Shown: positions 12,371 through 53,972, counted from the stretch's first letter. The stretch is DNA of 64,000 nucleotides from an uncultured Candidatus Saccharibacteria bacterium (GCA_964552045.1 CAZKFF010000003.1:11880-75879), one strand, 5' to 3'. Translations and numbers: made by a program. The notes: generated by a model from the sequence alone, not told the origin.

Positions 12371-13162
12371 ATGAAAATCTTTTCCTGGAACGTCAATGGT
12401 ATTCGTGCGGTCATAAAAAAGGGCGAATTTCAGTCGTTTATTAAAAAATACGAGCCCGATGTGTTGTGTCTGCAGGAGACAAAAGCCCAGGAGGGCCAGG
12501 CTGAGCTTGATGTTCCGCACTATGAAGAGTATTGGAATTCCGCAGAGAAGAAAGGATATTCAGGCACAGCCATTTTTACTAAAATACCGCCAAATGAAGC
12601 CATATATGGGATACCGAAGGTTATAACCAAGAAATTCGCACTTCTTGATGACTATGGCGACACCACAACCGAAGGGAGGGTCATAACGCTTGAGTTCGAA
12701 CAGTTGTATGTGACTTCGGTCTACACCCCCAATGCCAAGGATGACCTCTCGCGCATTCCGATGCGCCTGCAGTGGGACCCGGCTTTTCTCACGTTCATGG
12801 CAACCCTTCAAAAAAAGAAGCCAGTTGTCTTCTGCGGCGATCTCAATGTCGCCCATACAGAGATCGATCTTGCCCGCCCGAAAGAAAATGACGGTAAGAA
12901 GGGCTTCACAAAGGAAGAACGTGGGGGAATTGATGCCATGCTCCAGTCGGGTTTCGTCGACACATTCCGGATATTCAATAAGGAGGGCGGCAACTACTCC
13001 TGGTGGTCGGCCTGGGGTGGTGCGCGCGAACGGAATGTCGGCTGGAGGATCGACTACGTGATGGCCTCAGAGACACTTGTCCCGCTCATCAAAAGCGCCC
13101 GCATTCACGCCGATGTAATGGGAAGCGATCACTGTCCGGTTTCAATCGATATTGCTGTGTAA
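12371..13162 (+). CDS. xth: Exodeoxyribonuclease III (AP endonuclease)
   Basis: MKIFSWNVNGIRA...LCLQETK...WRIDYV...GSDHCPV, the full ExoIII motif set. Confidence 0.9.
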   Translation: MKIFSWNVNGIRAVIKKGEFQSFIKKYEPDVLCLQETKAQEGQAELDVPHYEEYWNSAEKKGYSGTAIFTKIPPNEAIYGIPKVITKKFALLDDYGDTTTEGRVITLEFEQLYVTSVYTPNAKDDLSRIPMRLQWDPAFLTFMATLQKKKPVVFCGDLNVAHTEIDLARPKENDGKKGFTKEERGGIDAMLQSGFVDTFRIFNKEGGNYSWWSAWGGARERNVGWRIDYVMASETLVPLIKSARIHADVMGSDHCPVSIDIAV

Positions 13163-13261
13163 CACACGTCAATGAGCGAAAAAACAATCACACGAAAGTA
13201 GATCATGTCAACTATCAGTGTTGAGCACTCAAAAATATGGCTCTACAGAGCCTCATAAACT

Positions 13262-13305
13262 AACTGCACAACGCGTGTCCTTTATAAAGGACACGCGTTG
13301 TGCAG
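13262..13305. repeat. 44-bp perfect palindrome (actgcacaacgcgtgtcctttat|aaaggacacgcgttgtgcagt) containing the TGTCCTTTATAAAGGACA core
   Basis: Read directly. A second inverted pair atgtccttta/taaaggacat lies at about 13328-13357. Confidence 0.6.
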
Positions 13306-13934
13306 TTATGCACAGTTATACACATGCATGTCCTTTACACATTATTATAAAGGACATAGTATATATGCAGGCCCAGAGAGGGCGAGCAGAGGTATCCCAA
13401 GTTCTCTTCTGAAGTTCACCGCTTCACAAAAGAACTTGGGATATTTCACTCAAAGAGTTCATTCAAAACAAAGCGAAGAGAGTAAGATCTCTTCAAGAGT
13501 TAATACCTCCAACTCTAATAGTTCATAACATCCCACCTTTTAAAGCTCACTGTTGCGATGAGTTGCAATGAGGATAAGAACAACCGTTCGCGTCCTCATA
13601 GCAGCTCATACAACAATATGTGAAAAATCTAAAGTACATAGAGCTTTAAACACAACGAGCCACAAAAGCGGAAATCTCAATAAGGAGATGACCACCTTGA
13701 GACAAAGTCTCACCAATAGGCTCATCAATAAGGCCTAGGGCAGTTGCTAGACGATACGATCGCCTACCAACTACCCTAGGTCTTTTTTTTATTTCCAAAC
13801 TTATTTCTGGAACCGGGTTTTCTGCGCATTAAGAAGACGCTCACAGACGGATGTTTATAGTTATCCCCACAATCCAGCAAAAAAGACGCAAAAACTCATG
13901 TTTTTGCGTCTTTTTGGCGGAGTGTCGGACGTTC

Positions 13935-15407
13935 TTAACCCACTCTGTGCTCGCGGGAGATGTCTTTCAGTGCTGCCGCTTCTTCTTCTTCCTGTTTGCG
14001 TTTTCCAGCCTCTGCGAGTTTTTCTAGCTCAGATTCCGGTAGCTCAATGAGCTCTAAAGCCCGCCCTTTTAGGCCATTTTCTGTATTTTTCCCCGGGTTA
14101 TCCAATACCTCTTCCAGTAGTGCGTGCAGTATATATCCCAGCTTTTTCCCCGGCTTTTCCCCAGTGATATCCATAATGGTATCCCCGTCTATTTTGAGCA
14201 TCCGGACAGAGATCGGGTCACGGAGCGCCTGGTCGACCATGGCCTTGTACTGTCTGAAACGGAACGGCTGCTCCTTAGGACGGCCGGTGCCGATGCGGTC
14301 GCAGACGCGGAGGTTGAGGAGATCATCTATATGTTCTTTCCCCACGCGTACAATCGTTCGGCGAACTGCAGAGAGTGTTATCTCTTCCGGATCGGAGAAG
14401 AACATGTGGTTGCGTACCAGTTTTTCGACGATACCTACAGTTTCACGCGGCATTTTCAGTCGCTGCAGTATTTTCTTGGCCATTCGGGCGCCCACGACCT
14501 CATGCCCGTAAAAGGTATATTCTTTGTTTTTGCCGCCGGTGCGGCGGGTTGCAGGCTTTCCTATATCGTGGAGCAGTGCGGCAAGGCGAAGTTCGGTTGA
14601 AAAACCCTTATCTGCTGCGGCCTGAAGCGTGCGCAGGATGTGCTCATAGACATCAAATGCGTGCGCGCCTCCCTGCTGACAGCCGATCCCCTCTGTGATC
14701 TCTGGAATGATGTGCTCGATGAGCCCGAGGCGCTCCAAGAGCACGATGCCCTGCATCGGGGTCGCACTATTGATGATTCGAATGAACTCCTCAGCAATGC
14801 GCTCAGAAGAAATACGGCTCAGATTATGGGCATTTCGAGTAATCGACTGCAGGGTCTCTGACTCGATGGCAAAATTGAGCTCCGCAGCAAGACGTACCGC
14901 GCGCATCATGCGCAACGCGTCTTCGCCAAAGCGCTCATCGGGTTCTCCTACGGTTTTAAGCCGTTTTTTTGCGATATCACTGACACCGTCAAACAGGTCG
15001 GTGATCTTTTCATCTCTGATGCTGAATGCGATGGCATTGACTGTGAAATCACGTCGTTGGAGGTCTTCTTCCAGCGACACGCCGAAGGTCACAGAATCGG
15101 GACGCCGCGCATCGCTGTAGCCGGATTCGCTCCGGTATGGTGTCACCTCAATAACCTTGAGGGTAGGGTCTTCCGTATCATCAATAACCACGCCGACCGT
15201 ACCGTAGTCATTGTTGCAGTATGTTTCAGGGAAGAGACCCTCAATCTCCTCGGGGTGCGCATCGGTCGTGATATCCCAGTCTTTGGGGGTCTTGCCAATA
15301 AGGATATCCCGCACGCATCCGCCGATGAGGTACGCTTCAAAACCCGCTTTGTGCAGGGTGTCGGAGACATACTGTACTTCCTTGGGGATGTCATTACGGA
15401 CGATCAT
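13935..15407 (-). CDS. cca: CCA-adding tRNA nucleotidyltransferase with HD domain
   Basis: GGCVRDILIG...DWDITT...RRDFTVNAIA (pol beta-like NTase) and an HD domain (LLHDIGK). Adjacent to a tRNA gene. Confidence 0.85.
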   Translation of the reverse strand: MIVRNDIPKEVQYVSDTLHKAGFEAYLIGGCVRDILIGKTPKDWDITTDAHPEEIEGLFPETYCNNDYGTVGVVIDDTEDPTLKVIEVTPYRSESGYSDARRPDSVTFGVSLEEDLQRRDFTVNAIAFSIRDEKITDLFDGVSDIAKKRLKTVGEPDERFGEDALRMMRAVRLAAELNFAIESETLQSITRNAHNLSRISSERIAEEFIRIINSATPMQGIVLLERLGLIEHIIPEITEGIGCQQGGAHAFDVYEHILRTLQAAADKGFSTELRLAALLHDIGKPATRRTGGKNKEYTFYGHEVVGARMAKKILQRLKMPRETVGIVEKLVRNHMFFSDPEEITLSAVRRTIVRVGKEHIDDLLNLRVCDRIGTGRPKEQPFRFRQYKAMVDQALRDPISVRMLKIDGDTIMDITGEKPGKKLGYILHALLEEVLDNPGKNTENGLKGRALELIELPESELEKLAEAGKRKQEEEEAAALKDISREHRVG

Positions 15408-18693: not shown

Positions 18694-18764
18694 GCGGCCA
18701 TGGTTAAGTGGTATAATGAGTCCTTGCCAAGGATTAGTCGGGAGTTCGATTCTCCCTGGCCGCA
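18694..18764 (+). tRNA. tRNA-Gly (anticodon GCC), no encoded CCA
   Basis: Acceptor GCGGCCA/TGGCCGC, D-stem GTTA/TAAT, anticodon stem AGTCC/GGATT with loop TTGCCAA, T-arm GGGAG-TTCGATT-CTCCC. Confidence 0.85.
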
Positions 18765-18766
18765 CT

Positions 18767-18806
18767 ACAATGAAAAAGCCGGACTGCATGTCCGGCTTTT
18801 TCATTG
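18767..18806. terminator. Bidirectional terminator after tRNA-Gly(GCC)
   Basis: acaatgaaaaagccggac-tgca-gtccggctttttcattgt. Confidence 0.7.
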
Positions 18807-18846
18807 TGCTGGAGAATTGAAAAGGCTTTGCTCTCGGGTATTCTCC

Positions 18847-19275
18847 TCACTTCACCTCGAACAGGAGAACTTTAGGCATTATTCCTGCTGCTCTGCACAC
18901 CATAAGACGCGTATTTCCAGAAACTAAATGGTACCCCTCGGCATGTTTGTATATAATTGGCGCACTGATTGATCTCCCTGCATCAAGATCATCTTTGTAG
19001 CCTCTCCATTCCCGGTCTGCTTGGCGTGATAATGCATCAACCTTATCCCACTGCCCTGCTTCGATATCTTTTGAGTCAGTATTTTCTAGTTGATCCCATA
19101 TCGATGGGTCAAGGAGTACCATAGTGCCGCCTTCTGCTGCAAACAAGAGGTCCAGAGTTGTCATGTTGAACAATGCACCTACGCGTTCAAACTCACCATG
19201 TTCTTTTTCGAGAATTGGGTACTTGAACTGGTTACTTTTTTGTTCAAAGGACTCCATGCGATTATTATAGCTCAT
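18847..19275 (-). CDS. Hypothetical protein (about 142 aa from MSYNNRMESF; RBS ggagagg upstream)
   Basis: ORF with a reasonable RBS. No recognisable domain. Confidence 0.45.
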   Translation of the reverse strand: MSYNNRMESFEQKSNQFKYPILEKEHGEFERVGALFNMTTLDLLFAAEGGTMVLLDPSIWDQLENTDSKDIEAGQWDKVDALSRQADREWRGYKDDLDAGRSISAPIIYKHAEGYHLVSGNTRLMVCRAAGIMPKVLLFEVK

Positions 19276-19316
19276 GCCATAACCTCTCCTCACTTTAATC
19301 TGTTATCATACTCACC

Positions 19317-20471
19317 ATGTCACGAGTTGCGATTTCGGAGTACGCGGCCAAGAAGCTCATTCTTGGCGAGGCGTATACGGGTATTACGGTTACACATGAA
19401 ACCATTGATGATGCTGTTTCTCAACTGGCAGATAGCAGAAAATATATCATCAAAATTGACGTTGGTATAAAAAAACGCGGAAAACAGGGCCTTATTTGGC
19501 TCAATGTCAGCAGATCTGATGCCAAAAAAGCGATACAGGAACTTTTTGACCTTGGGCACGGCCGTTGCGTGATCGAGGAGATGGTTCCACATGAAACCAA
19601 CGATGAGCGTTATGTGAGCATTGATCTGCAGCGGGAAGGGGCTTTGGTCCTGTATTCACACAAGGGCGGCGTCGAAATTGAAGATAATGCTGCGGAAATG
19701 CAGCGTTTTTCTGCACCACGCGCAGAAGTCCTTGCCGGGGAAACGACCCTTGTTACCCCCGATGTTCCGCTCAATTTCCTTTTGCGCGCCATGCAGCAGT
19801 TCCACTTCTCCTTTCTCGAGATCAATCCTTTCGTGGCTCTCAATAAAGATTTTCTGCCACTCGATATGGCTGTAGAGATTGATGATGCGAAAGCAGGCAG
19901 ATTGCCACAGTGGGCGCAGTCGCACATCATCAAGAAAGCTGATACTCCAGAGGAAAAGGCGGTACAGGCACAGGACGAGACCACTGCGGCAGCTTTGACT
20001 TTGAAGATACTCAATATAAATGGCTCTATTCTCACTCTTTTGTCGGGCGGCGGCGCGAGTCTGGTCACGATTGATGCGCTTGTGACGGCAGGACTACAGG
20101 AAAAAATCATTAACTATAGCGAGTACAGTGGTGCCCCGACACGTGATGAGACCCATGCATATGTGCATACCCTTTTAAAGGTTTTGTTTGCTTCAGAAGC
20201 ATCAAAAAAAGTTGTGCTCATTGCAGGGGGCGTCGCTAACTTTACCGATATTATGGCCACCTTTGAGGGCATTGTTGATGCTTTTACTGAGAATCTTGCG
20301 GAACTGAAGCGTCAGCACGTCTACGTCTGTGCTCGTCGCGGCGGCCCCAATCAGGAAAAGGGCCTTTCGCATTTGCGCAATTTCCTTGCGGAAAATGGTA
20401 TAGCGCATGATATTCATGATCCCTCCCTTTCGCTGGGTGATATTGCAACACTCGTGACACCACATCTATAG
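19317..20471 (+). CDS. aclB: ATP-citrate lyase small subunit (ATP-grasp, SucC-like)
   Basis: Collinear with ACLY N-terminus: MSRVAISEYAAKKLIL; IIKIDVGIKKRGKQGLIWLN; SHKGGVEIED; FLEINPFV; LLSGGGASLV; NYSEYSGAPT; VLIAGGVANFT; ARRGGPNQEKGL. Confidence 0.85.
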   Translation: MSRVAISEYAAKKLILGEAYTGITVTHETIDDAVSQLADSRKYIIKIDVGIKKRGKQGLIWLNVSRSDAKKAIQELFDLGHGRCVIEEMVPHETNDERYVSIDLQREGALVLYSHKGGVEIEDNAAEMQRFSAPRAEVLAGETTLVTPDVPLNFLLRAMQQFHFSFLEINPFVALNKDFLPLDMAVEIDDAKAGRLPQWAQSHIIKKADTPEEKAVQAQDETTAAALTLKILNINGSILTLLSGGGASLVTIDALVTAGLQEKIINYSEYSGAPTRDETHAYVHTLLKVLFASEASKKVVLIAGGVANFTDIMATFEGIVDAFTENLAELKRQHVYVCARRGGPNQEKGLSHLRNFLAENGIAHDIHDPSLSLGDIATLVTPHL

Positions 20472-20474
20472 ACT

Positions 20475-22196
20475 ATGATCAATATAATACGTGAAAAAGA
20501 GGCTAAAATAGTGGTTGCAGGCAACCATACAAAGATCATGCAATCCATTTTGGACTTTGATTATGCCGCAGGGAAAGCTCAGCCGAGTATAGTGGGCATT
20601 ATTTCAACGGGACGGAAAACCCAAAAGCTCTTCTGGGGTGATGGTGAGGTTCTCATTCCCGTATTTGAAACAGTAGAGTCGTCAAAAAAACTCGGAATAG
20701 AGCCAGATTTTCTGCTGTGTATCACTTCAGCCTCGAGCACACCCGTTATGGTTGATGCGTTTTTCACTGCATATCCCGATGCGCTCGGTGCGCACCTCTT
20801 TGCTGAAGGCGTGGCAGAGCGTGACGCCTTGTCGATCATTGAAAAATACGGAGATAAGCTCATTGCCGGCCCCTCAGGAGTCGGTCTGTGTATACCGGGA
20901 AGCCTGAAATTAGGTGCCGTTGGCGGTATTTTGGGAGAACGGCTTGCACAATTGGGATCCACCCGTGGATCGGTTGCAGTCGTGTGCAGTTCCGGCGGCA
21001 TGGTCAATGAGCTCATGTATCAGATAGTTGCCTCAGGTTCAGCGATCAGTTTCGCTACTGCTTTCGGTGGCGACCGTTTCCCCATCACTTCTCCACTCGA
21101 GTGGATCACAGAAGCCGAACATGACCCTGAAACAAAAGCGATCGTTTATTTCGGCGAGCTCGGCGGACGCGATGAGTACGATATTGTGGCTGCAATCAAG
21201 AATAAAGAGCTTACAAAGCCTGTTTTTGCCTATATAGCGGGACGTTTTGAGTCAAAGGATGAGAAGATCCAGTTCGGTCATGCCAAGGCTCTGGCTAAGG
21301 CCGAAGATGAAACCGCACAAGCAAAGATGGAAGCGCTCCGCAACGCCGGAGTGCATGTCAGCGATACCTTCGCTGAGTTCATGGCCTCGTTCGCTTCCCT
21401 TCCGAAGGATGTTACACGTGTAACAAACGCTCGGGAGTGGACCATGCGCAGAGCTTCTGTACGCCCGACTCATTTTTCTGCTCGAAAATACACTGGGGAA
21501 CAGGCTCCCAGCTTTACCGAGGCTATTATGCAGCGAATTCTTGGGAAAGAGACGGTTTCACGAGAAACAGTCGCGTTTGTGGATACAATTTTCGCTGAAC
21601 TTATCGACCATGGGCCTGCGGTCTCTGGCGCAGTAAATACTATGATCACCGCTCGGGCTGGCAGAGATATGGGCGCGAGCATTGCTTCGGGGATCCTCAC
21701 CATCGGTGACCGGTTCGGCGGTGCGATCAACAATGCGGCAAAAGTGTGGCATGAATCTGTTTCACATGGAACTTCCCCTCTTGATCTTGTAGCAACCTAC
21801 AGTAAGAATCGAGAATATATTCCTGGGATTGGCCATAAAAAATACAGCATTTATAAACCTGATCCTCGCGTAAGAACGTTTATTGAAGCTGGGAAACAGG
21901 CTCTGCGATACGCAAAGCACATGCAATTTGCCGAAGAAGTTGCACGTGAAACATCAAAAAAGCGGGCAAATCTTATATTAAATGTAGATGGAACCATTGC
22001 GGCGCTGCTTCTTGACTACCTATCTGAAAAGGAAATGTTCGACGTGGAACAAATTGAAGCGCTGCTTGAAATTGAATTCTTTAATTCACTCTTTATTATT
22101 CCCCGAACGGTAGGGTTTGTTGGACACTATCTCGACCAAAAGCGCATAGATGAAGGATTATTCCGGCTCGGCGATGGCGATATCTACGAGTATTAG
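20475..22196 (+). CDS. aclA: ATP-citrate lyase large subunit (CoA-binding/SucD-like domain with phospho-His, plus a C-terminal citrate-synthase-like citryl-CoA lyase domain)
   Basis: SucD-like VVCSSGGMVNELMYQ...FGGDRFP...FGHAKAL (catalytic His). C-terminus DHGPAVSGAVNTMITARAGRD...GIGHKKYSIYKPDPRV...ANLILNVDG...VGFVGHYLDQKRIDEGLFR closely matches the ACLY C-terminus. Confidence 0.85.
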   Translation: MINIIREKEAKIVVAGNHTKIMQSILDFDYAAGKAQPSIVGIISTGRKTQKLFWGDGEVLIPVFETVESSKKLGIEPDFLLCITSASSTPVMVDAFFTAYPDALGAHLFAEGVAERDALSIIEKYGDKLIAGPSGVGLCIPGSLKLGAVGGILGERLAQLGSTRGSVAVVCSSGGMVNELMYQIVASGSAISFATAFGGDRFPITSPLEWITEAEHDPETKAIVYFGELGGRDEYDIVAAIKNKELTKPVFAYIAGRFESKDEKIQFGHAKALAKAEDETAQAKMEALRNAGVHVSDTFAEFMASFASLPKDVTRVTNAREWTMRRASVRPTHFSARKYTGEQAPSFTEAIMQRILGKETVSRETVAFVDTIFAELIDHGPAVSGAVNTMITARAGRDMGASIASGILTIGDRFGGAINNAAKVWHESVSHGTSPLDLVATYSKNREYIPGIGHKKYSIYKPDPRVRTFIEAGKQALRYAKHMQFAEEVARETSKKRANLILNVDGTIAALLLDYLSEKEMFDVEQIEALLEIEFFNSLFIIPRTVGFVGHYLDQKRIDEGLFRLGDGDIYEY

Positions 22197-22210
22197 AGGA
22201 AGAAAATAAG

Positions 22211-22259
22211 GCACACATGAAACCGCCGAGCTTATGGCTCGGCGGTTTCATGTGTGCCA
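22211..22259. terminator. Strong terminator after aclA (22-bp perfect stem)
   Basis: ggcacacatgaaaccgccgagc-ttatg-gctcggcggtttcatgtgtgcc. Confidence 0.85.
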
Positions 22260-22452
22260 GTACCCGAGTGTACTCTTGGGTTGGGGAAAATTGTTGATAA
22301 GTCGGTGGATATGTGTATAAAGGACAGACCTTTATGGTATACTCGTCCTATAATGCAGCCAATATTTTCTTGATATTATTAGGATTGCGTATGCATTAAT
22401 ACTCTAGTTGGATGTAATTTCAGGTTTCACGTGAAACGTCCACGAGCTTACT

Positions 22453-22857
22453 ATGACTCAGTCATACACCACAAAGGAGATTGGAATATTGGGTGAGAAG
22501 ATCACTGCATTGTTTCTCATGAAACGAGGGTTTACCATTCTGGAACGCAACTACTGGAGAAAATGGGGGGAACTTGATCTGGTTGCCTCAAAAGACGGTA
22601 TGGTACATTTTATAGAGGTAAAGACTGCTTCATATGAATCGAGAGAAAAGCTTGAGTATGCTGTTTCCCATGAAACATGGCGGCCGGAAGAACGTGTGCA
22701 TCAGTTTAAGATCCACCAGATACATAAGGCTCTTGAAACATGGACCATGGATAATGCCTTTGAAGGGGAATGGGTCATTGATGTGGCCGCTGTTCGGGTT
22801 GTGCCACGTGAAACATACGCGTCCGTACGTTTTATCGAAAATATAGTGCAGGAATGA
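22453..22857 (+). CDS. yraN: YraN/UPF0102-family endonuclease-like protein
   Basis: GILGEKITALFLMKRGFTILERNYWRKWGELDLVASKDGMVHFIEVKTAS matches the YraN family signature (G..GE..A..YL...G..IL.RN.R...GEIDLIA...FVEVK). Confidence 0.7.
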   Translation: MTQSYTTKEIGILGEKITALFLMKRGFTILERNYWRKWGELDLVASKDGMVHFIEVKTASYESREKLEYAVSHETWRPEERVHQFKIHQIHKALETWTMDNAFEGEWVIDVAAVRVVPRETYASVRFIENIVQE

Positions 22858-28777: not shown

Positions 28778-29699
28778 AATCCTTTAAACAAAGCGTACAA
28801 TACGCTTTGTGTTTTATATGAAGAACGGGGACAGAAATTGTTGACAGCGTATGTGTGGGGTGTATATTCAGGGAATGGTAGATATGAGTTTAGTTAGCTT
28901 GTTTGCGTTCACCGCAGCATACCTTCTATGGAATCTAAAGGATGTCATCATCCCCGCGTTCTGTACGGTTGGCGTGCGCAAGTAAGTTTGTGAAAAATAA
29001 AACGCCGGCCTTACAGGCCGGCGTTTTATTTTTCACTTTCATTGTTCGAAGTGCCAGTTTGTTCGTGCAACATGGCGGTACTCCGAACCGTGAACCCGGT
29101 CGGTGTCGTACCTCACAAGGAGGACGGATGCGGCAAATGCAGTACACAAAGGGGAATACTATGTCTAAGGATACTCCAGGCGGGGACATACCCTCATCGG
29201 AGGGCAGCGTCTCGTTCGATCACCTGCTGACAGCGGGAGGCCTGTGCAGCGACGGGGAAGACTTCCCGCGGGGATACCCTCCTCTTTCGGGGGTATATCG
29301 GGAATCACGCGGCCGATGCTGGGATTTCGACAGCGTAGGGCGAGCGCTGACCATTGCAGGCGGGCGGAAGTGAGTTTGGGGGACGCATACGTGCGTCCCC
29401 GCTTTTGTGTCTGTCTTCATTTGACTCTTCAGCTCGGGGAAGATACAGTAGACACATGCATACCGCATACACAGCATCATATTACTTCTTTTGGTTTAGA
29501 AGCGGGGAGACCCGTGGTGCGTTTGTGAGTGCGTAAGTACAAAATCAGAAAACCGCCGCGCGTTTCCCTGAGAGGAACGCGCGGCGTTTCTTGTTTGTGT
29601 TCCGAGCAAAGCACGCACCATTTGTTTTGCTCGGTACGCAAGTATCGAAAAACCGCCGCGCTTTGCGTGGAAGGGTATGTACATCAATGGAGAACAGCT

Positions 29700-29984
29700 A
29701 TGGCCTATGCATGTGCGCTCAACGGCAATGCGCCGCTTGACCCGCCCCAAACGGATGCGGTTCAGGAGGAGTGTACACTCGAATGGTTCAAACAGCGGCT
29801 TATCGAGGCCGGTGTGAGTGGCCTCCACATCACGTGGGGCAACTACAGGGAGGAATTCCCCGAGGTTCCGAAGCACCTCATGCATGCGTATCTGCATCAT
29901 CGCAGACGTCTCCTGCACAGGCAGGCGCTTGCACTCGCAAAGGAAGGATATGCTGCGCTCGAAGAGCATCCTTTTGCTCTGTGA
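29700..29984 (+). CDS. Hypothetical small protein (94 aa from MAYACALNG; RBS ggaga 6 nt upstream)
   Basis: In-frame internal start of track ORF 29529-29984. Preceded by two GC-rich hairpins and followed by a perfect hairpin at about 29993-30015. Confidence 0.35.
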   Translation: MAYACALNGNAPLDPPQTDAVQEECTLEWFKQRLIEAGVSGLHITWGNYREEFPEVPKHLMHAYLHHRRRLLHRQALALAKEGYAALEEHPFAL

Positions 29985-30208
29985 ACGCACCAAGGCGCGC
30001 ACTCTGCGCGCCTTTATCTGTGGCTTTTGAAGCTGTACATACCAAAAAATGCGCTCACAGAAGAGACGCATTTTCGGTCCGGTTCCGTACCCCTACGGCA
30101 CCGTAGAAAAGAACAGATTTTGTCGACAAACGTGCCCCTTCGATCGGAGCACGAAGTGATATCTTAACTAATGATGAGTTCAGTGGCAAAAAATGCCTGT
30201 GCATAGCG

Positions 30209-31356: not shown

Positions 31357-31427
31357 GCGGGTGTGGTTTAGTGGTAAAACGACTGCCTTCCAAGCAGTAG
31401 TCGGGGGTTCGATTCCTCTCACCCGCA
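31357..31427 (+). tRNA. tRNA-Gly (anticodon TCC), no encoded CCA
   Basis: Acceptor GCGGGTG/CACCCGC, D-arm GTTT-AGTGGTA-AAAC, anticodon stem ACTGC/GCAGT with loop CTTCCAA, T-arm GGGGG-TTCGATT-CCTCT. Confidence 0.85.
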
Positions 31428-31490
31428 CACATATGTTCCAGAAAAAAGCCCGTCAAGGGCTTTTTTCTTTGGAACATAGTGTGCGGGTGA
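31419..31490. repeat. Inverted repeat of the tRNA-Gly 3' end (tcacccgcacacatatgttcca / tggaacatagtgtgcgggtga) enclosing a terminator hairpin at 31442-31468
   Basis: Read directly. 21-22-nt arms with one indel. A further 10-bp hairpin gtaacctgct-ggg-agcaggttac follows at 31492-31514. Confidence 0.6.
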
Positions 31491-31621: not shown

Positions 31622-32161
31622 GTGCTTATGAACACAGAGCCTAAGAAATATATATTTCATGTAGAGCCTGCAATTGCTGCCATAACACCATACGGGATGG
31701 CCACTATCTCCGAGGACTTATTCAAAATGGCTTCTTATTTTGAAAATGATAACAAAATATCACTTGCACAGTATTATATTTACTGTGCATCTATGGAAAT
31801 CGGATTAAAGGCGGCAATTCTTGCTAGAGATTGCACAAAAGAGAGCAAGGAAACGATTAAAAATTTTGGACACAACTTACATACTGTAAAAAATAAATTT
31901 GAAGATTTGTACGACCCAATTTGGGATAAAGATGATATAAAAGCTATTGAGAAAATTAATCCTTTTTTCAAAGATAAAGATTTAGAATACTTTAAGATTA
32001 ATGTAATGGGTGAAATGTTAAAAGGGTTAAAACAGTTCCCGTCTCTTGACTCGATAGAAAATGCTGCCCGGAAAGTAAATCAGTTTGTGAATCAAGAAAA
32101 ATTCTTTATTAACGCCAAAACGTCTCAAAAACCAGGTAAAGGATTTATAAATTTTGTATAA
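31622..32161 (+). CDS. Hypothetical protein encoded by a markedly low-GC (about 35%) gene; likely horizontally acquired cargo next to the tRNA
   Basis: The composition shift against the ~57% GC background is visible by eye. It lies just downstream of the tRNA and the inverted copy of its 3' end. No domain recognised. Confidence 0.55.
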   Translation: MLMNTEPKKYIFHVEPAIAAITPYGMATISEDLFKMASYFENDNKISLAQYYIYCASMEIGLKAAILARDCTKESKETIKNFGHNLHTVKNKFEDLYDPIWDKDDIKAIEKINPFFKDKDLEYFKINVMGEMLKGLKQFPSLDSIENAARKVNQFVNQEKFFINAKTSQKPGKGFINFV

Positions 32162-32557: not shown

Positions 32558-32586
32558 CATAAACCCCCGGACAAGCCGGGGGTTTT

Positions 32587-32946
32587 TCACTTGCGAAAGA
32601 TAGTTTCGCCGATCCTGACCGCATTTACGACATGCTCCGTACCGTATCGCATTAATGCGAAGGCGATGCCGATATAGCGGATGGGTCGTGACTTGAATCT
32701 GCTGTGGAGTGTGATCAGGAAGTGGAGGGCTTCCAGCTCGATCGTCCATTGGCGCAGGGTTTCCCGCACAAGTTCCGCGTCATAGATCCTCATCAGCTCA
32801 ATGAGCTGATGTATGGCCATTTCTTCGACATAGGCGAGCTTAGCTTCGTCTGAGGCACCTTCGTATTTCTCCTTCAGTTCGACGGCGGTCTTCGCTATCA
32901 TTCGTGAAAGGATGTGTTTGATAAGACCCTTGCGTGACTGGTTCAC
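32587..32946 (-). CDS. Hypothetical protein (119 aa)
   Basis: ORF only. No motif. Confidence 0.4.
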   Translation of the reverse strand: MNQSRKGLIKHILSRMIAKTAVELKEKYEGASDEAKLAYVEEMAIHQLIELMRIYDAELVRETLRQWTIELEALHFLITLHSRFKSRPIRYIGIAFALMRYGTEHVVNAVRIGETIFRK

Positions 32947-33201
32947 TTTCGTAGCTCCAAGAACGGTTTACCGTACTCAATCATAGTCCCGTCATAAAAG
33001 CAAAAAGCCCCGGCTAAGGGCTTTCTGCTTTGTGATGGGAAATAGCGGGAATTACTCCTTGTATTTCCACATAGCGTAATACCTCCGCTACGTGTGTCAG
33101 TATAGCAGATTTCAAAACGGAATGGGAAGAGTGCACATCCTGTTCATAACTCGGACACAAAAAAGCTGCGGTGTACCGCAGCTTTTTTGTGTGGGGAGTG
33201 A

Positions 33202-33474
33202 TTATTTCACCGCATCCTTCAGTGCTTTCGCAGCACGGAACTTTGGAACGCGCATTGCTGGAACTTCGATGGTTTCACCAGTGCGGGGATTTCGTGCAGT
33301 TCTCTTGTTGCGCATCTTTGCTGAGAAGATACCCAAGCCCGCGATCGATACTTCCTGTCCTGCAACAAGCGTATCAACAATGGATGAGAGTACTGTCTCT
33401 ACAGCCTTTTCAGCATCAGCTTTTGTGACGCCCAGCTCTTCATGCACTTTGTTAATGATGTCTGCCTTATTCAT
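33202..33474 (-). CDS. hup: HU-family nucleoid-associated DNA-binding protein
   Basis: MNKADIINKVHEELGVTKADAEKAV...GLGIFSAKMRNKRTARNPRTGETIEVPAMRVPKFRAAKALKDAV. A terminator follows at about 33156-33190. Confidence 0.9.
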   Translation of the reverse strand: MNKADIINKVHEELGVTKADAEKAVETVLSSIVDTLVAGQEVSIAGLGIFSAKMRNKRTARNPRTGETIEVPAMRVPKFRAAKALKDAVK

Positions 33475-33711
33475 AATTCCATTATTATTCTAAATGGCGA
33501 GTAAAGTGTGCTTTGGCTCCGGGTGATGCAGAGATGAGACTGTTCTCATTCCGTTGTTCGCCGCAGAGTACGTTTTTGCATCAGCTTGAATTCTGATACG
33601 GTGCCTTATTAAATGGCTTCAAATAATTATATAGCAAGGTTTTTTACCTGCAATGACTTGTAAACTGAACAATATGTGTTGTAGTGAACAGTTCAAAAGA
33701 CGCTGCACCGG

Positions 33712-37593: not shown

Positions 37594-38775
<1,182 letters not shown>

Positions 38776-38863
38776 GTGTGGTTGATGAAATAGTACAGGG
38801 GGTAGTGTACCTATATACGAAGAAAAAGCAATAAAAAAAGCCGGGGTACATCCCCGGCTTTTT

Positions 38864-39244
38864 TTATTGCAGTATTTCAGCTTCAATGGCCGGTATCTCC
38901 TGGTTGAGGGTATCGAGCCGTGTGGCGTCGATATCTGCCTGTATCGCTTCCAATTCGTCCGATGGACTCAATGCTGCCGCTGTTTCCACATCACTCTCAG
39001 CATTGGTGCTTTCTGGTTCATTGTTCTCCTCTGCTGTCGGACGTTCAGTATCCTGCGTCGGCACGGGAGACATCTCAGTTTGCATTGATCGGCCCCAGAG
39101 GTACAGTCCGCCGAGTATAAGCATGAGTACCAATACGAGAACGCCCAGTATGACGCCTAAGTGTGACGGCTGCTCGGTCTGTGCATTCTCTCCAAACTGT
39201 TCCTCCGGCATTTTGAACCCATTTTTTGAAATTTTGTCGTTCAT
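38864..39244 (-). CDS. Hypothetical single-TM protein with an acidic C-terminal tail
   Basis: TM LGVILGVLVLVLMLILGGLYLW. A terminator follows at about 38828-38862. Confidence 0.45.
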   Translation of the reverse strand: MNDKISKNGFKMPEEQFGENAQTEQPSHLGVILGVLVLVLMLILGGLYLWGRSMQTEMSPVPTQDTERPTAEENNEPESTNAESDVETAAALSPSDELEAIQADIDATRLDTLNQEIPAIEAEILQ

Positions 39245-50905: not shown

Positions 50906-51328
50906 TTATGCCTCGTCTACGTCCTCCTCCTGGAGCGCTGCCAGTATCTGAGTTGCGACAACCGAGAGTTCATCATCGGTCGCCTCCCTCCCTTCTGCCA
51001 TGATGGCGCCGAGCGCTTTCTGCGTATCCTGCATGGGGTATATCTTTATGTGGACATGCGGGACTTCGAATCCCTCAACCGCAAGACACGTGCGCGCAGC
51101 CCCCAAAGCTCGGTCGGACGCTTTGGCGATCTTCTTGGCTATTCTAAAGAGATGGATATATGAATCGTCGTCGAGATCGAATGCATAATCGATGTCTTTC
51201 TTCGGGATGACAAGCGACTGCCCTTTGACTGCAGGGAATTTGTCCAGAATGGCGACGCAGAATTCATCTTCATAGATGAAATGTCCAGGGATCTCCCGAT
51301 TGATGATCTTGGTGAAAATTGATGTCAT
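50906..51328 (-). CDS. HIT-family (histidine triad) hydrolase (140 aa; the C-terminal part of the longer track ORF)
   Basis: IFTKIINREIP...EGFEVPHVHIKIYP (HxHxHxx). The upstream extension of the track ORF overlaps recJ and is taken as spurious. Confidence 0.8.
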   Translation of the reverse strand: MTSIFTKIINREIPGHFIYEDEFCVAILDKFPAVKGQSLVIPKKDIDYAFDLDDDSYIHLFRIAKKIAKASDRALGAARTCLAVEGFEVPHVHIKIYPMQDTQKALGAIMAEGREATDDELSVVATQILAALQEEDVDEA

Positions 51329-51367
51329 ACGTGTAGAGTACCGCTTCATGGTACCATAATCCTGTTT

Positions 51368-53077
51368 ATGGTCACCTACACTCCTCCGCGCAGCATTCCC
51401 AATGACGTCCTCAAAGAGCTTGCGGCATACAGTCCGCATCTGCAGCAATTGCTGTATGGCCGGGGCATTACTACGCAGCACGATGCGCATGCTTTCCTTC
51501 ATCCGTCGTATGAGGATCACCTTCATGATCCGTTTCTCCTCCACGATATGGACAAAGCGGTAAATCGCATCATGGAAGCGATGCGTACAGAAGAACACAT
51601 CGTGATCTACAGCGATTATGACTGCGATGGCATCCCTGGGGCGGTCGTGCTCCACGATTTTTTTCGTGCCATCGGCTATGAACGCTTCTCTAATTACATA
51701 CCGCACCGGCATTACGAAGGGTTCGGTCTGAGCGCGGCGGCTGTTGTAAAGCTCAAGGATGAGGGTGCATCGCTCGTGATCACCATTGACTGTGGCACAA
51801 GCGACGTCGAGGCTGTAGAGAAGGCCACTGAGCTCGGGATTGATGTCATTATCACGGATCATCACGAGGCAAAGGAGGTGCTGCCACAGGCGTACGCCGT
51901 AGTGAACCCGAAGGTCGGTATCACGTATCCATTCGACGGGTTGTGCGGCAGCGGCGTGGTGTACAAGCTGGTGCAGGCGCTCATCCTGAAGAACGACGCG
52001 ACGCATCAGTTCACGCTCACGCCGGGCTGGGAGAAATGGTGGCTCGATATGGTGGCACTTGCAACCATTGCGGATATGGTCCCGCTTGTAGGGGAAAACC
52101 GCGCGCTTGCCTACTATGGTTTGCAGGTGCTCCGTAAATCGCGGCGGCCCGGGCTTCAGCAGCTTGTTTCCAAACAGCGGGCGAGCATGATCCATCTCAC
52201 TGAAGACGATATCGGATTCACCATCGGCCCGCGCATCAATGCAGCCTCACGCATGGATACGCCCGAGGATGCGTTCCTGATGCTTTCGTGCAGCGATATC
52301 TCGCAAGCGGGAGCATATGTCGAGCATCTGGAGAAACTCAACAACGAACGCCGCGGGATCGTCGCCTCCATGACCAAGGAGATCAATAAGCGCATCGCGC
52401 AGCTTCCGGAACTGCCGCCGGTTATCGTGCTCGGCAATCCACTCTGGCGCCCGTCACTGGTGGGCCTGGTAGCCAATAAGCTCGCCGAAGAACACAACCG
52501 ACCGGCATTCCTGTGGGGACGCGACGGCAACGGGGTCTATAAGGGTTCATGCCGCTCGGAAGGGGTTACGAGCGTGGTCGCGCTTATGAATGAAGCAGCA
52601 CATGTGTTCGTCGAGCACGGCGGACATCATTTCTCAGGAGGATTCGGCGTGCGCGAGGATCACATCCATACATTCGGTGAAACGCTCAATGAGGCGTATC
52701 TGCGCATGGGGGAACAAGCGCATTTTGTTATGGAAGAACAAGTTGATGCTCTTTTGCAGCTTGATGACGTCACCGCCGCATTTCTCCGCGACCAGGCGCT
52801 GCTCGCACCGTTCGGCGAAGGTAATCCCAAGCCCCTGTATCTTTTCACCGGTGTGGTCCCCGCAGAGGTTGGAGTGTTTGGAAAGGCGAGAGAGCATACC
52901 AAGCTCTTCCTACAGACGCAGGGTCTTGCGCGTGAAGCCATCGCATTCTTCAGAATGCCGGAAGATTTCACAAGAGAGCCCAAGGCAGGCGAAGCGGTCG
53001 ATCTGTATGCACACGTCGAACAGTCGTACTTCATGGGACGTCTGCAGACGCGCCTGCGCATTGTTGACGTGGTATGA
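51368..53077 (+). CDS. recJ: Single-stranded-DNA-specific 5'-3' exonuclease RecJ
   Basis: DHH motifs (IYSDYDCDGI; ITDHH), DHHA1 domain (GGGH..AAG) and OB-fold C-terminus. Confidence 0.9.
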   Translation: MVTYTPPRSIPNDVLKELAAYSPHLQQLLYGRGITTQHDAHAFLHPSYEDHLHDPFLLHDMDKAVNRIMEAMRTEEHIVIYSDYDCDGIPGAVVLHDFFRAIGYERFSNYIPHRHYEGFGLSAAAVVKLKDEGASLVITIDCGTSDVEAVEKATELGIDVIITDHHEAKEVLPQAYAVVNPKVGITYPFDGLCGSGVVYKLVQALILKNDATHQFTLTPGWEKWWLDMVALATIADMVPLVGENRALAYYGLQVLRKSRRPGLQQLVSKQRASMIHLTEDDIGFTIGPRINAASRMDTPEDAFLMLSCSDISQAGAYVEHLEKLNNERRGIVASMTKEINKRIAQLPELPPVIVLGNPLWRPSLVGLVANKLAEEHNRPAFLWGRDGNGVYKGSCRSEGVTSVVALMNEAAHVFVEHGGHHFSGGFGVREDHIHTFGETLNEAYLRMGEQAHFVMEEQVDALLQLDDVTAAFLRDQALLAPFGEGNPKPLYLFTGVVPAEVGVFGKAREHTKLFLQTQGLAREAIAFFRMPEDFTREPKAGEAVDLYAHVEQSYFMGRLQTRLRIVDVV

Positions 53078-53531: not shown

Positions 53532-53972
53532 GTGGTGTATAGTACGGGTATGGAAACAATCATTGCCTATACTGACGGCGGCGCGCGGGGCAACCCCGGC
53601 CCGGCAGGCATCGGCGTACAGATACAGGACGCGGACGGGAACGTTCTGAAGGAGGTTGCCCAATTCCTGGGGAATGCCACCAATAATTTCGCCGAGTACA
53701 ATGGGGTGCTTGTCGCACTCCAGACGCTGAAGGCGATGTACGGAAAGAAGACGAGAGAGATGCATATCGAGCTGCGCATGGACAGCGAACTCATCAAGAA
53801 GCAGCTCAACGGCGAATACCAGATCAAGGAGCCGGGTCTGGTGCCGTACTTCATCGAGATCCATAATCTCCGCGTATCCAATTTCCCCAATCTGACGCTC
53901 ACACATGTCCCCCGGGCGCAGAATAAAGAGGCAGACCGCCTCTCAAATGAAGCGATGGATAAAGGTTCGTAA
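53532..53972 (+). CDS. rnhA: Ribonuclease HI (probable start METIIAYTDG near 53550)
   Basis: YTDGGARGNPGPAG, NNFAEY, ELRMDSEL, NKEADRL (the DEDD catalytic set). Confidence 0.85.
   Translation: MVYSTGMETIIAYTDGGARGNPGPAGIGVQIQDADGNVLKEVAQFLGNATNNFAEYNGVLVALQTLKAMYGKKTREMHIELRMDSELIKKQLNGEYQIKEPGLVPYFIEIHNLRVSNFPNLTLTHVPRAQNKEADRLSNEAMDKGS

Follow-up and report, generated by a model that had tools for sequence, protein, structure and literature searches.

A predicted two-subunit ATP-citrate lyase of long standing in a CPR bacterium, overlain by a cluster of parS-like sites

The DNA described here is a 64-kb stretch (the window) of a contig from an uncultured Candidatus Saccharibacteria bacterium (GCA_964552045.1, CAZKFF010000003.1:11880-75879). 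It contains two adjacent genes, aclB and aclA, followed by a long perfect hairpin (Table 1). The gene pair is predicted to encode a functional ATP-citrate lyase (ACL) that has been an old resident of its lineage by vertical descent, and that would cleave scavenged citrate to provide acetyl-coenzyme A (acetyl-CoA) for the modification of envelope sugars. A cluster of sites resembling the chromosomal palindrome parS overlies the same locus. This reading taken as a whole is given a probability of about 0.78. The gene inventory on which it draws is that of the window together with flanks of up to 10 kb around related loci (numbered with the prefix L).

ACL is already known in the Candidate Phyla Radiation (CPR), with the same citrate-scavenging interpretation. 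Sieber et al. (2019, mBio, PMC6851277) described a two-subunit ACL in a CPR Gracilibacterium and called the enzyme rare in CPR; it was read as converting external citrate into acetyl-CoA and oxaloacetate, and lateral transfer from archaea was suggested. A 2025 groundwater study found aclAB to be enriched in Saccharimonadia, and a 2022 preprint placed CPR and DPANN sequences among the citrate-cleaving enzymes. The basic picture is therefore unchanged. What is new is a vertically inherited, clade-wide CPR lineage of ACL with a GHAKA loop, the recurrence of acetyl-CoA-using envelope genes as neighbours, and the presence of a putative parS cluster within the coding sequence of ACL.

Domain organization and enzyme identity

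As the original prediction had described, the locus comprises two open reading frames (ORFs) encoding 384 and 573 aa, both on the plus strand. The TAG stop codon of aclB is separated by 3 nt (ACT) from the ATG of aclA, while in relatives the genes overlap by 4 nt. In Pfam searches aclB matches Citrate_bind (PF16114; E = 3.5e-46, 157.4 bits with a cut-off of 26.8), the ACL ATP-grasp domain (PF24948; 93.8 bits with a cut-off of 83) and ATP-grasp_2. Ligase_CoA, Succ_CoA_lig and Citrate_synt all fall in the single ORF of aclA, which is laid out as a CoA-binding and phospho-histidine ligase part (approximately aa 1–310) fused to a citrate-synthase-like citryl-CoA lyase module (approximately aa 345–573).

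Comparison with PDB sequences using phmmer places both proteins with ACL. AclA matches human ACLY (1e-95), Methanothrix ACLY-B (1e-92) and Chlorobium AclA (2e-60), with weaker matches to citryl-CoA lyase (CCL; 1e-23) and the alpha subunit of succinyl-CoA synthetase (SCS; 1e-22 or worse). AclB matches Methanothrix ACLY-A (6hxi_A; 7e-47), human ACLY (2e-44) and Chlorobium AclB (7e-32), followed at a distance by citryl-CoA synthetase (CCS; 2.5e-15) and SCS-beta (8e-5). The alignment of AclA with human ACLY occurs in two stretches, human 495–803 and 885–1088, the second of which aligns with AclA 364–567 without gaps.

Two related enzymes were considered and rejected. For SCS, the NCBIfam SucD and SucC models give 110.9 and 67.6 bits (cut-offs 336 and 375.55 respectively), and there is the extra Citrate_synt domain. 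For CCS acting with a separate lyase, a single chain here carries both the lyase module and the ligase part, and the best NCBIfam CCL model gives 91.9 bits (cut-off 212). An SCS-like protein, a CCS without lyase and a loss of the lyase residues had been named in the original prediction as outcomes that would speak against ACL; all three were looked for and none was found. The assignment to ACL is thus upheld by the Pfam domains, by PDB matches far ahead of those to SCS and CCS or CCL, and by the conserved catalytic residues, and on these comparisons aclB and aclA are taken to encode a heteromeric ACL (EC 2.3.3.8) with a predicted activity and direction. The motifs MSRVAISE, EINP, GGGASLV, EYSGAP, GGVANFT and RRGGPN are present as had been listed, and one given as KRRGKxGL in fact reads KKRGKQGL. 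The C-terminal sequence VGFVGHYLDQKRIDEGLFR is found at aa 546–564 of AclA; it had been called almost identical to the human C terminus, but the identity is 13 of 19 residues.

Catalytic residues and predicted structure

The phospho-histidine of AclA lies in a loop with the sequence GHAKA. The canonical loop in ACL and SCS is GHAGA, and GHAKA is a clade-specific variant in which the histidine and lysine are invariant in all 116 clade members. The lysine is common to Dojkabacteria-labelled and other neighbouring representatives, and the remaining ACLs have glycine. Within the lyase module H379, H454 and D505 are invariant in 116 of 116 full-length homologues, as is E111 of the ligase part in 115 of them, and R544 and R564 vary little or not at all across the same set. 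The titles of PDB entries listed by Foldseek include ACLY D1026A and Methanothrix D541A, mutants that trap substrate or citryl-CoA.

In AclB the residues K46, R54 (within KKRGK, 52–56), N170 and D183 are assigned to Mg-ATP, and G272, N308, T310 and R341 to citrate. All are kept in the window and in 11 clade partners from related loci. They match K58, R66, N203 and D216, and G309, N346, T348 and R379 of human ACLY, which we take to be the corresponding ligands there (3MWD and the ACLY literature).

An AlphaFold (AF2) monomer model of AclA based on an alignment of 40 sequences has a predicted local distance difference test (pLDDT) score of 86.7, with disorder confined to the phospho-histidine loop and the last four residues. 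When this model was used in a Foldseek search ACL large subunits ranked first (6hxi_B, 3e-45), with matches to both halves. The N-terminal half fits human ACLY at 1.8 Å (TM 0.87), and the C-terminal part fits the lyase core module.

Descent of the aclBA locus

The aclBA pair appears to be an old, vertically inherited member of a CPR-wide ACL clade, and not a recent import. The gene order shared with L011 (a 450-kb contig; AclA 68% identical) runs exonuclease III, CCA enzyme, HTH_23, aclB-aclA, UPF0102, CorA, hydrolase, ECF sigma factor and DUF5667, and synteny holds in relatives with AclA identities of 66–83%. The order tRNA-Arg(TCG), tRNA-Gly(GCC), aclBA and tRNA-Pro(TGG) recurs in L001, L003, L004, L006 and L011; the adjacency of a tRNA gene is therefore inherited, and is not the scar of an integration. 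AclA and PNPase have evidently diverged in step. On the six contigs that carry both genes the identities to the window (PNPase/AclA, %) are 82/75, 74/68, 75/68, 74/68, 74/72 and 73/70. The GC content at third codon positions (GC3) is 0.48 for aclB and 0.46 for aclA compared with a window mean of 0.59 (z = −1.3 and −1.6 respectively), a property shared by the neighbouring genes, and in codon usage both genes are among those nearest to the window average.

When 1.84 billion representative sequences were searched exhaustively, only 112 were obtained at E ≤ 1e-30, in which the whole clade of the window collapses into one representative. The next named representatives come from Ca. Dojkabacteria (43%), an unclassified bacterium (40%), a second group of Saccharibacteria (36%), a DPANN archaeon (36%), a fungus (38%) and Chlorobiaceae (37%). 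In a distance tree (neighbour-joining with Kimura-type distances and midpoint rooting, fit for grouping and not for deep branching order or the dating of an ancient transfer) the window is nested in a radiation associated with CPR, from which the eukaryote/Methanothrix-like and Chlorobium groups stand apart. The derived signatures of this radiation are GHAKA (not GHAGA), GIGH[KR]KY (not GIGHRVKS) and DEGLFRL (not QGLYRHP). The description of the pair as eukaryote-like holds only loosely: its best matches among solved structures are the human and Methanothrix enzymes, yet the protein falls in a distinct clade, associated with CPR and bearing signatures of its own.

The suggestion of a possible horizontal acquisition, in the sense of a recent one, does not stand. 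It is very unlikely that the pair is a transfer island inserted at tRNA-Gly, even though a tRNA gene adjoins it, the GC3 is somewhat lower than the mean across approximately 18.8–25 kb, and ACL is patchy across prokaryotes, where earlier authors invoked lateral transfer. The tRNA order and the flanking genes are kept in relatives with AclA identities down to 66–68%, the divergence parallels that of PNPase, few genes of the window have a smaller codon-usage distance, the pair is not bordered by an integrase or a repeat boundary, and the nearest outgroups carry CPR labels (Dojkabacteria and Saccharibacteria). A transfer, if any, may have been an ancient one, into an early CPR lineage or the CPR ancestor.

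Among the representatives P0128 and P0141–P0170 are many metagenomic homologues of approximately 920–1030 aa, apparent AclB–AclA fusions that are shorter than animal ACLY. The AclA part comes first in P0128 (1003 aa).

A parS-like cluster within and beyond the ACL genes

The chromosomal parS palindrome has the consensus TGTTNCACGTGAAACA (PMC7022226), and the outer-stem motif of the hairpin that follows aclA corresponds to its core. A scan with the 14-mer core GTTTCACGTGAAAC at ≤2 mismatches gives 10 sites in the window where 0.18 is expected, all located within 19389–22814 (3.4 kb). Two of these are in aclB, four in aclA and three in the UPF0102 gene downstream, and the one in the spacer is perfect. 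With the 16-mer at ≤3 mismatches there are nine sites (0.32 expected), all within 21410–22815. Eight syntenic relatives have 4–13 sites each, all lying between 500 nt before aclB and 2500 nt after aclA with none elsewhere in their flanks, and twelve loci of other CPR contexts (approximately 200 kb) have a single site between them. Boxes for Rex, FNR/CRP, LexA and Noc were considered for the palindrome and set aside, as the 14-mer matches parS exactly.

The six intragenic sites share a reading frame, GTT xCA CRT GAA ACx, encoding V-x-R/H-E-T. Identity at the third codon position is 0.646 within them compared with 0.389 in the rest of the genes (permutation p < 5e-5). Single sites come and go between lineages via amino-acid changes, and the cluster stays.

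The arms of the hairpin are 100% complementary, with a folding energy of −50.7 kcal/mol (z = −10.3). The outer stem supplies one parS-like site per arm (GGCACACATGAAAC and GTTTCATGTGTGCC), and the inner stem is GC-rich. A hairpin occupies the same position in the relatives, with stems of 24 nt in L001 (4219–4267), 24 nt in L008 (9532–9582) and 20 nt in L011 (11746–11788). The outer stem is conserved in these (ACAC[A/G]TGAAAC ... GTTTCA[C/T]GTGT), and the inner stem is unrelated in sequence and yet perfectly complementary, i.e. covarying. The arm was not taken for a dispersed repeat, being unique within the window and present among the loci on short contigs of the organism itself and no others. 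Past the hairpin, L011, L008 and L003 have a convergent gene for peptide deformylase that the window lacks.

The original prediction had the operon bounded by a terminator with a 22-bp stem. The stem exists as described, with arms of 22 nt, perfect complementarity and a loop of 5 nt, but the function proposed for it is not borne out. In a terminator scan the hairpin scores on the minus strand only, where alone there is a T-run; on the operon strand an A-rich stretch precedes the hairpin and CAGTACCCGAG comes after, so that there is no U-tract, and the arms are parS-like sites within a conserved cluster of such sites. We conclude that the supposed terminator is probably a short GC-rich hairpin with a parS-like site mirrored on either side, and forms part of the cluster. 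The alternative, in which the hairpin is simply a Rho-independent terminator and the 14-mers follow as a by-product from the conservation of V-S-R/H-E-T peptide motifs, is considered unlikely. The very stable stem directly after the stop codon is in keeping with termination, and some bacteria may terminate transcription at a long stem that has no U-tract, but the T-run is missing from the strand where it would be needed. The single reading frame of all six intragenic sites is what a by-product would give; against this, sites occur in non-coding DNA (the perfect GTTTCACGTGAAAC at 22424) and in the unrelated UPF0102 gene and genes of the relatives' def region, synonymous positions within the sites are conserved, amino acids change between lineages such that sites arise or vanish, and the ACL genes of other subclades have no such sites.

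On the evidence of these motifs we conclude that a centromere-like parS cluster of this subclade overlies the aclBA-UPF0102 locus, where ParB would be expected to bind. No Pfam match to ParA or ParB was found among the scanned ORFs of the window. The cluster should be a practical landmark for the centromere, and probably for the origin region, in these genomes, and would be an unusually clear instance of selection at the DNA level acting on the coding sequence of a metabolic enzyme.

Between the genes for exonuclease III and the CCA enzyme there is a 774-nt non-coding, AT-rich gap (13162–13935; GC 0.41). It contains four of the 12 DnaA-box-like 9-mers of the window and lies near the minimum of cumulative GC skew, and is a weak candidate for an origin. 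Across the window such boxes are not enriched (12 found, 9.9 expected). L011 has a gap of similar size with only one DnaA-box-like 9-mer; the box cluster is not reproduced there, and therefore no origin is called.

Gene contexts in sister subclades

Loci L013–L020, L023 and L024 (AclA 48–63% identical to the window) lie outside the subclade of the window, and show aclBA in three different arrangements. At 48–52% identity a gene for an Acyl_transf_3/SGNH (AT3/SGNH) O-acetyltransferase lies beside aclB in four of five lineages (approximately 7 kb upstream in L016). Upstream genes, again in four of the five (not in L019), encode NeuB, a CMP-sugar synthetase and a HAD phosphatase, and a Wzy_C ligase and MurB are encoded downstream. 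At 59–60% identity L018 has the CMP-sugar synthetase divergent upstream and a NeuB-cupin gene convergent downstream, together with a flippase and a nearby AT3/SGNH gene; the downstream half of this arrangement is confirmed in L023, on a shorter contig. At 63% identity a GNAT acetyltransferase is located divergently and directly upstream (L020 and L024), and in L020 there is an AT3/SGNH gene 3 kb downstream.

Acetyl-CoA is a substrate of GNATs and of OatA/OafA-type AT3/SGNH enzymes, and N-acetylation is required in nonulosonic-acid pathways. The association outlasts rearrangement of the genes, and this suggests that ACL may supply acetyl-CoA for the acetylation of envelope glycans.

Predicted reaction and physiological role

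A mechanism may be proposed from the conserved residues and the solved homologues. The genes aclB and aclA would be co-transcribed and translationally coupled. The ATP-grasp domain of AclB with bound Mg-ATP would phosphorylate H269 on the mobile GHAKA loop of AclA, from which the phosphate would be handed to citrate held by the citrate-binding domain of AclB. Reaction with CoA on the N-terminal domain of AclA would then give citryl-CoA, and the fused C-terminal lyase module (H379, H454 and D505) would split this into acetyl-CoA and oxaloacetate. The citrate is most likely scavenged, in a cell without sign of a tricarboxylic acid (TCA) cycle. The acetyl-CoA would probably be spent mainly on the acetylation of envelope sugars, to judge from the neighbours of aclBA in the sister subclades, and the oxaloacetate would be available for aspartate or phosphoenolpyruvate. 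The stand-alone conversion of citrate to acetyl-CoA and oxaloacetate envisaged in the original prediction is supported, and is the reading published for the CPR Gracilibacterium (PMC6851277).

Such a role would be of some interest. CPR bacteria are abundant, mostly uncultured and thought to live off the metabolites of hosts. Acetyl-CoA is needed for the synthesis of peptidoglycan and surface sugars, and its origin is a puzzle in CPR lineages that lack pyruvate oxidation. An ACL that is conserved, passed down vertically and found repeatedly beside envelope genes that use acetyl-CoA offers a concrete and testable answer, whereby host citrate would be converted into acetyl groups at the cell surface.

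Several points weigh against this interpretation. The case for glycan acetylation is one of guilt by association; it comes from sister subclades, and as their arrangements are partly inherited they do not count as independent. A tblastn search for AT3/SGNH, NeuB, GNAT, Wzy_C and MurB found nothing in the window or its syntenic relatives, and therefore the link cannot be shown in the neighbourhood of this genome. No citrate transporter was seen in the window or in the flanks of the relatives, and no CPR ACL has been biochemically characterised in the literature. The clade-wide change of glycine to lysine beside the phospho-histidine, together with three deletions in the ATP-grasp domain of AclB, could alter kinetics or specificity. 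Lastly, ACL spends one ATP per citrate, a real expense for a fermentative symbiont.

An alternative is that the enzyme runs backwards and yields ATP as a citrate synthase (acetyl-CoA + oxaloacetate + ADP + Pi → citrate + CoA + ATP), providing substrate-level phosphorylation; any extra ATP would be of value to a fermentative CPR cell. The reaction is reversible, citrate formation by ACL is recorded for Desulfobacter postgatei (PMC7699770), and no separate citrate synthase was seen in the window. This direction is nevertheless judged improbable. Neither the window nor the flanks of relatives showed a gene for aconitase or for any other consumption of citrate, conversion of acetyl-CoA to acetate (by Pta-AckA or an ADP-forming synthetase) yields the same ATP more simply, and the neighbours in sister subclades consume acetyl-CoA, which fits a role as supplier.

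ACL is also the signature enzyme of the reductive TCA (rTCA) cycle in Chlorobi, Campylobacterota, Nitrospirota and Aquificota, and could in principle be the citrate-cleaving step of CO2 fixation here. That is extremely unlikely in a small-genome CPR bacterium whose sequence is far closer to the non-autotroph type (human and Methanothrix) than to Chlorobium, and where no 2-oxoglutarate:ferredoxin oxidoreductase, fumarate reductase, pyruvate:ferredoxin oxidoreductase, aconitase or isocitrate dehydrogenase is found in the 64 kb or in approximately 200 kb of the relatives' flanks.

A bolder form of the citrate-scavenging interpretation may be stated, although it is speculative and on balance doubtful. 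The compact GHAKA-loop ACL would be the dedicated, and perhaps the sole, source of acetyl-CoA in a large CPR clade, feeding N- and O-acetylation of envelope glycans (nonulosonic-acid sugars and OatA-like AT3/SGNH enzymes) from host citrate. One subclade would have placed its centromere inside aclA and aclB, with ParB loading coupling expression or dosage to segregation.

Neighbouring genes and host

The Pfam matches of the window include RNA and DNA housekeeping proteins (PNPase, ComM, an XerC-type recombinase, exonuclease III, CCA enzyme, RecJ, RNase Y, NusA and S12/S7), protein-handling factors (trigger factor and ClpP), competence and pilus genes (ComEC and type IV pilus genes), and metabolic or stress proteins (TIM, PGK, pyrophosphatase, Fe/Mn-SOD, GH15 glucoamylase and prephenate dehydratase). 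The statement that no other TCA or rTCA genes lie nearby agrees with the Pfam scan, in which no such family was found among the main ORFs of the window or in the tables for the relatives' flanks. Rfam searches, both at the gathering threshold and at E ≤ 0.05, returned four tRNAs, with the remaining matches sub-threshold and hairpin-like.

The tRNA-Gly(GCC) mentioned in the original prediction was located upstream of the operon, with a minus-strand ORF of 148 aa between the two. No Pfam or PDB sequence match was obtained for this ORF even at E ≤ 10, and none was called at the equivalent position in L011. It has approximately 39 homologues, all unnamed CPR proteins in unrelated contexts, with an invariant H-V-x-G-x-T-R-L-M motif. 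Its AF2 model has a pLDDT of 92, and Foldseek ranks 1–45 all belong to the ParB/sulfiredoxin (Srx) superfamily, weakly (best E = 4e-3). The HTH_23 protein upstream of the tRNA, with a counterpart of 220 aa at the equivalent position of L011, is possibly a local regulator.

The host is identified from sequence labels as a CPR/Patescibacteria bacterium of uncertain class, because the close homologues of PNPase and AclA come from CPR-labelled bins. These bins are labelled Ca. Paceibacterota, Ca. Saccharibacteria, Ca. Pacebacteria and Ca. Nomurabacteria, and the syntenic relatives Saccharibacteria; Ca. Paceibacterota is a phylum-level CPR name, Minisyncoccota in current NCBI taxonomy. A scan of genome contigs gave eight loci with inconsistent labels (Saccharibacteria, 'bacterium' and Azotimanducaceae). 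L008 (JBLHGD010000027.1), along with P0403, is from a metagenome-assembled genome labelled Ca. Azotimanducaceae (Gammaproteobacteria), and carries a CPR-type aclBA, the parS cluster and a CPR-type PNPase (73% identical to that of the window). The L008 genome is probably mis-binned or mislabelled.

Some other features of the window may be recorded. An ORF of 179 aa (31622–32161, +) has a GC content of 0.32 (window mean 0.52), the most deviant codon usage in the window and no Pfam match; it lies shortly after tRNA-Gly(TCC) (31357–31428) and has the appearance of foreign DNA. Two stretches, 28778–30208 (approximately 1.4 kb) and 32558–33711 (approximately 1.15 kb), contain no convincing ORF, merely compositionally odd ones without a Pfam match, and have no Rfam match even at E ≤ 0.05. 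In the trigger factor (37594–38886, −) an insertion containing a stretch of Asp-His repeats (…DDHDHDHDHDHDHDHDHEEG…) separates the N-terminal Pfam domain from the C-terminal one. An ORF of 429 aa on the minus strand (50906–52195) that overlaps recJ (51368–53077, +) is spurious, with the C-terminal 114 aa alone (50909–51250) forming a HIT-domain protein. An RNase H/RVT_3-like ORF of 146 aa (53532–53972, +) is found in an otherwise ORF-poor stretch.

Table 1. Positions in the window of the ACL genes, their key residues, the parS-like sites and the flanking features
Feature	Position	Strand	Description
aclB	19317–20471	+	384 aa, predicted ACL small subunit; compact ATP-grasp domain and citrate-binding domain
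aclA	20475–22196	+	573 aa, predicted ACL large subunit
Phospho-histidine loop G268-H269-A270-K271-A272 (GHAKA)	21276–21290	+	H269 aligned with human H760
Lyase-module residues H379, H454 and D505	21609–21611, 21834–21836 and 21987–21989 (span 21609–21989)	+	Equivalent to human H900, H975 and D1026
E111	20805–20807	+	Equivalent to human E599
parS-like 14-mers in aclB	19389–19402 (GTTACACATGAAAC); 19584–19597 (GTTCCACATGAAAC)		Both in frame 0, encoding V-x-H-E-T
parS-like 14-mers in aclA	21411, 21555, 21759, 21939		≤2 mismatches to GTTTCACGTGAAAC
Perfect parS-like 14-mer	22424–22437		Intergenic, 16 nt upstream of the UPF0102 start
parS-like 14-mers in UPF0102 gene	22512, 22663, 22801		≤2 mismatches to GTTTCACGTGAAAC
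Perfect 22-bp hairpin	22210–22258		Arms 22210–22231 and 22237–22258; 5-nt loop
UPF0102 (YraN-family) gene	22453–22857	+	Pfam PF02021, 6.5e-16; conserved downstream neighbour carrying three parS-like sites
148-aa ORF (probable start 19275)	18847–19293	−	Divergent from aclB; small CPR-specific protein
tRNA-Gly(GCC)	18694–18765	+	Upstream of aclBA; followed by a strong A/T-flanked hairpin at ~18766–18808
HTH_23 protein, 221 aa	18026–18691	+	Pfam HTH_23, 5.9e-07; upstream neighbour kept in the syntenic subclade

Comparison with known systems

The Gracilibacterium ACL resembles the present system as a stand-alone two-gene ACL in a CPR genome without a TCA cycle. Set against its published description, it has GHAGA and archaeal best hits, whereas the clade of the window has GHAKA, CPR-labelled nearest relatives and, apparently, vertical descent.

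Among solved structures the best match is that of ACLY-A/B from Methanothrix (Methanosaeta) soehngenii/concilii (6hxi and 6znw), with which the window proteins share the two subunits, the domain order and the catalytic residues. The identity is approximately 32–40%, and the window proteins are shorter (384 and 573 aa compared with 421 and 631 aa), with deletions that affect the ATP-grasp domain and the linker leading into the lyase module. They also differ in the GHAKA loop and belong to a separate clade. Human ACLY (6hxh and 6poe) has the equivalents E599, H760, H900, H975 and D1026, the EYSGAP, ANFT and RRGGPN motifs and the C-terminal HYLDQKR helix, but is one fused chain of 1101 aa with a regulatory linker, and its role is the lipogenic supply of cytosolic acetyl-CoA. 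Chlorobium limicola AclBA (6hxj) is alike in heteromeric architecture and chemistry, but is a much weaker match and works within the complete rTCA cycle of an autotroph. The CCS and lyase of Hydrogenobacter (6hxq and 6hxp) comprise homologous modules that perform, overall, the same chemistry in two steps. Their lyase is a protein on its own, whereas that of the window is fused to the CoA-ligase subunit, and the scores are far lower (1e-23, 4e-16 and 2.5e-15).

The parS/ParB systems of B. subtilis, C. glutamicum, Streptomyces and Myxococcus share with the window the palindrome and its occurrence as clustered copies, often inside coding sequence. The parS-like sites of the window differ in that 10 are gathered within 3.4 kb, six lie inside the ACL genes in a single reading frame, and two make up the outer stem of a long hairpin.

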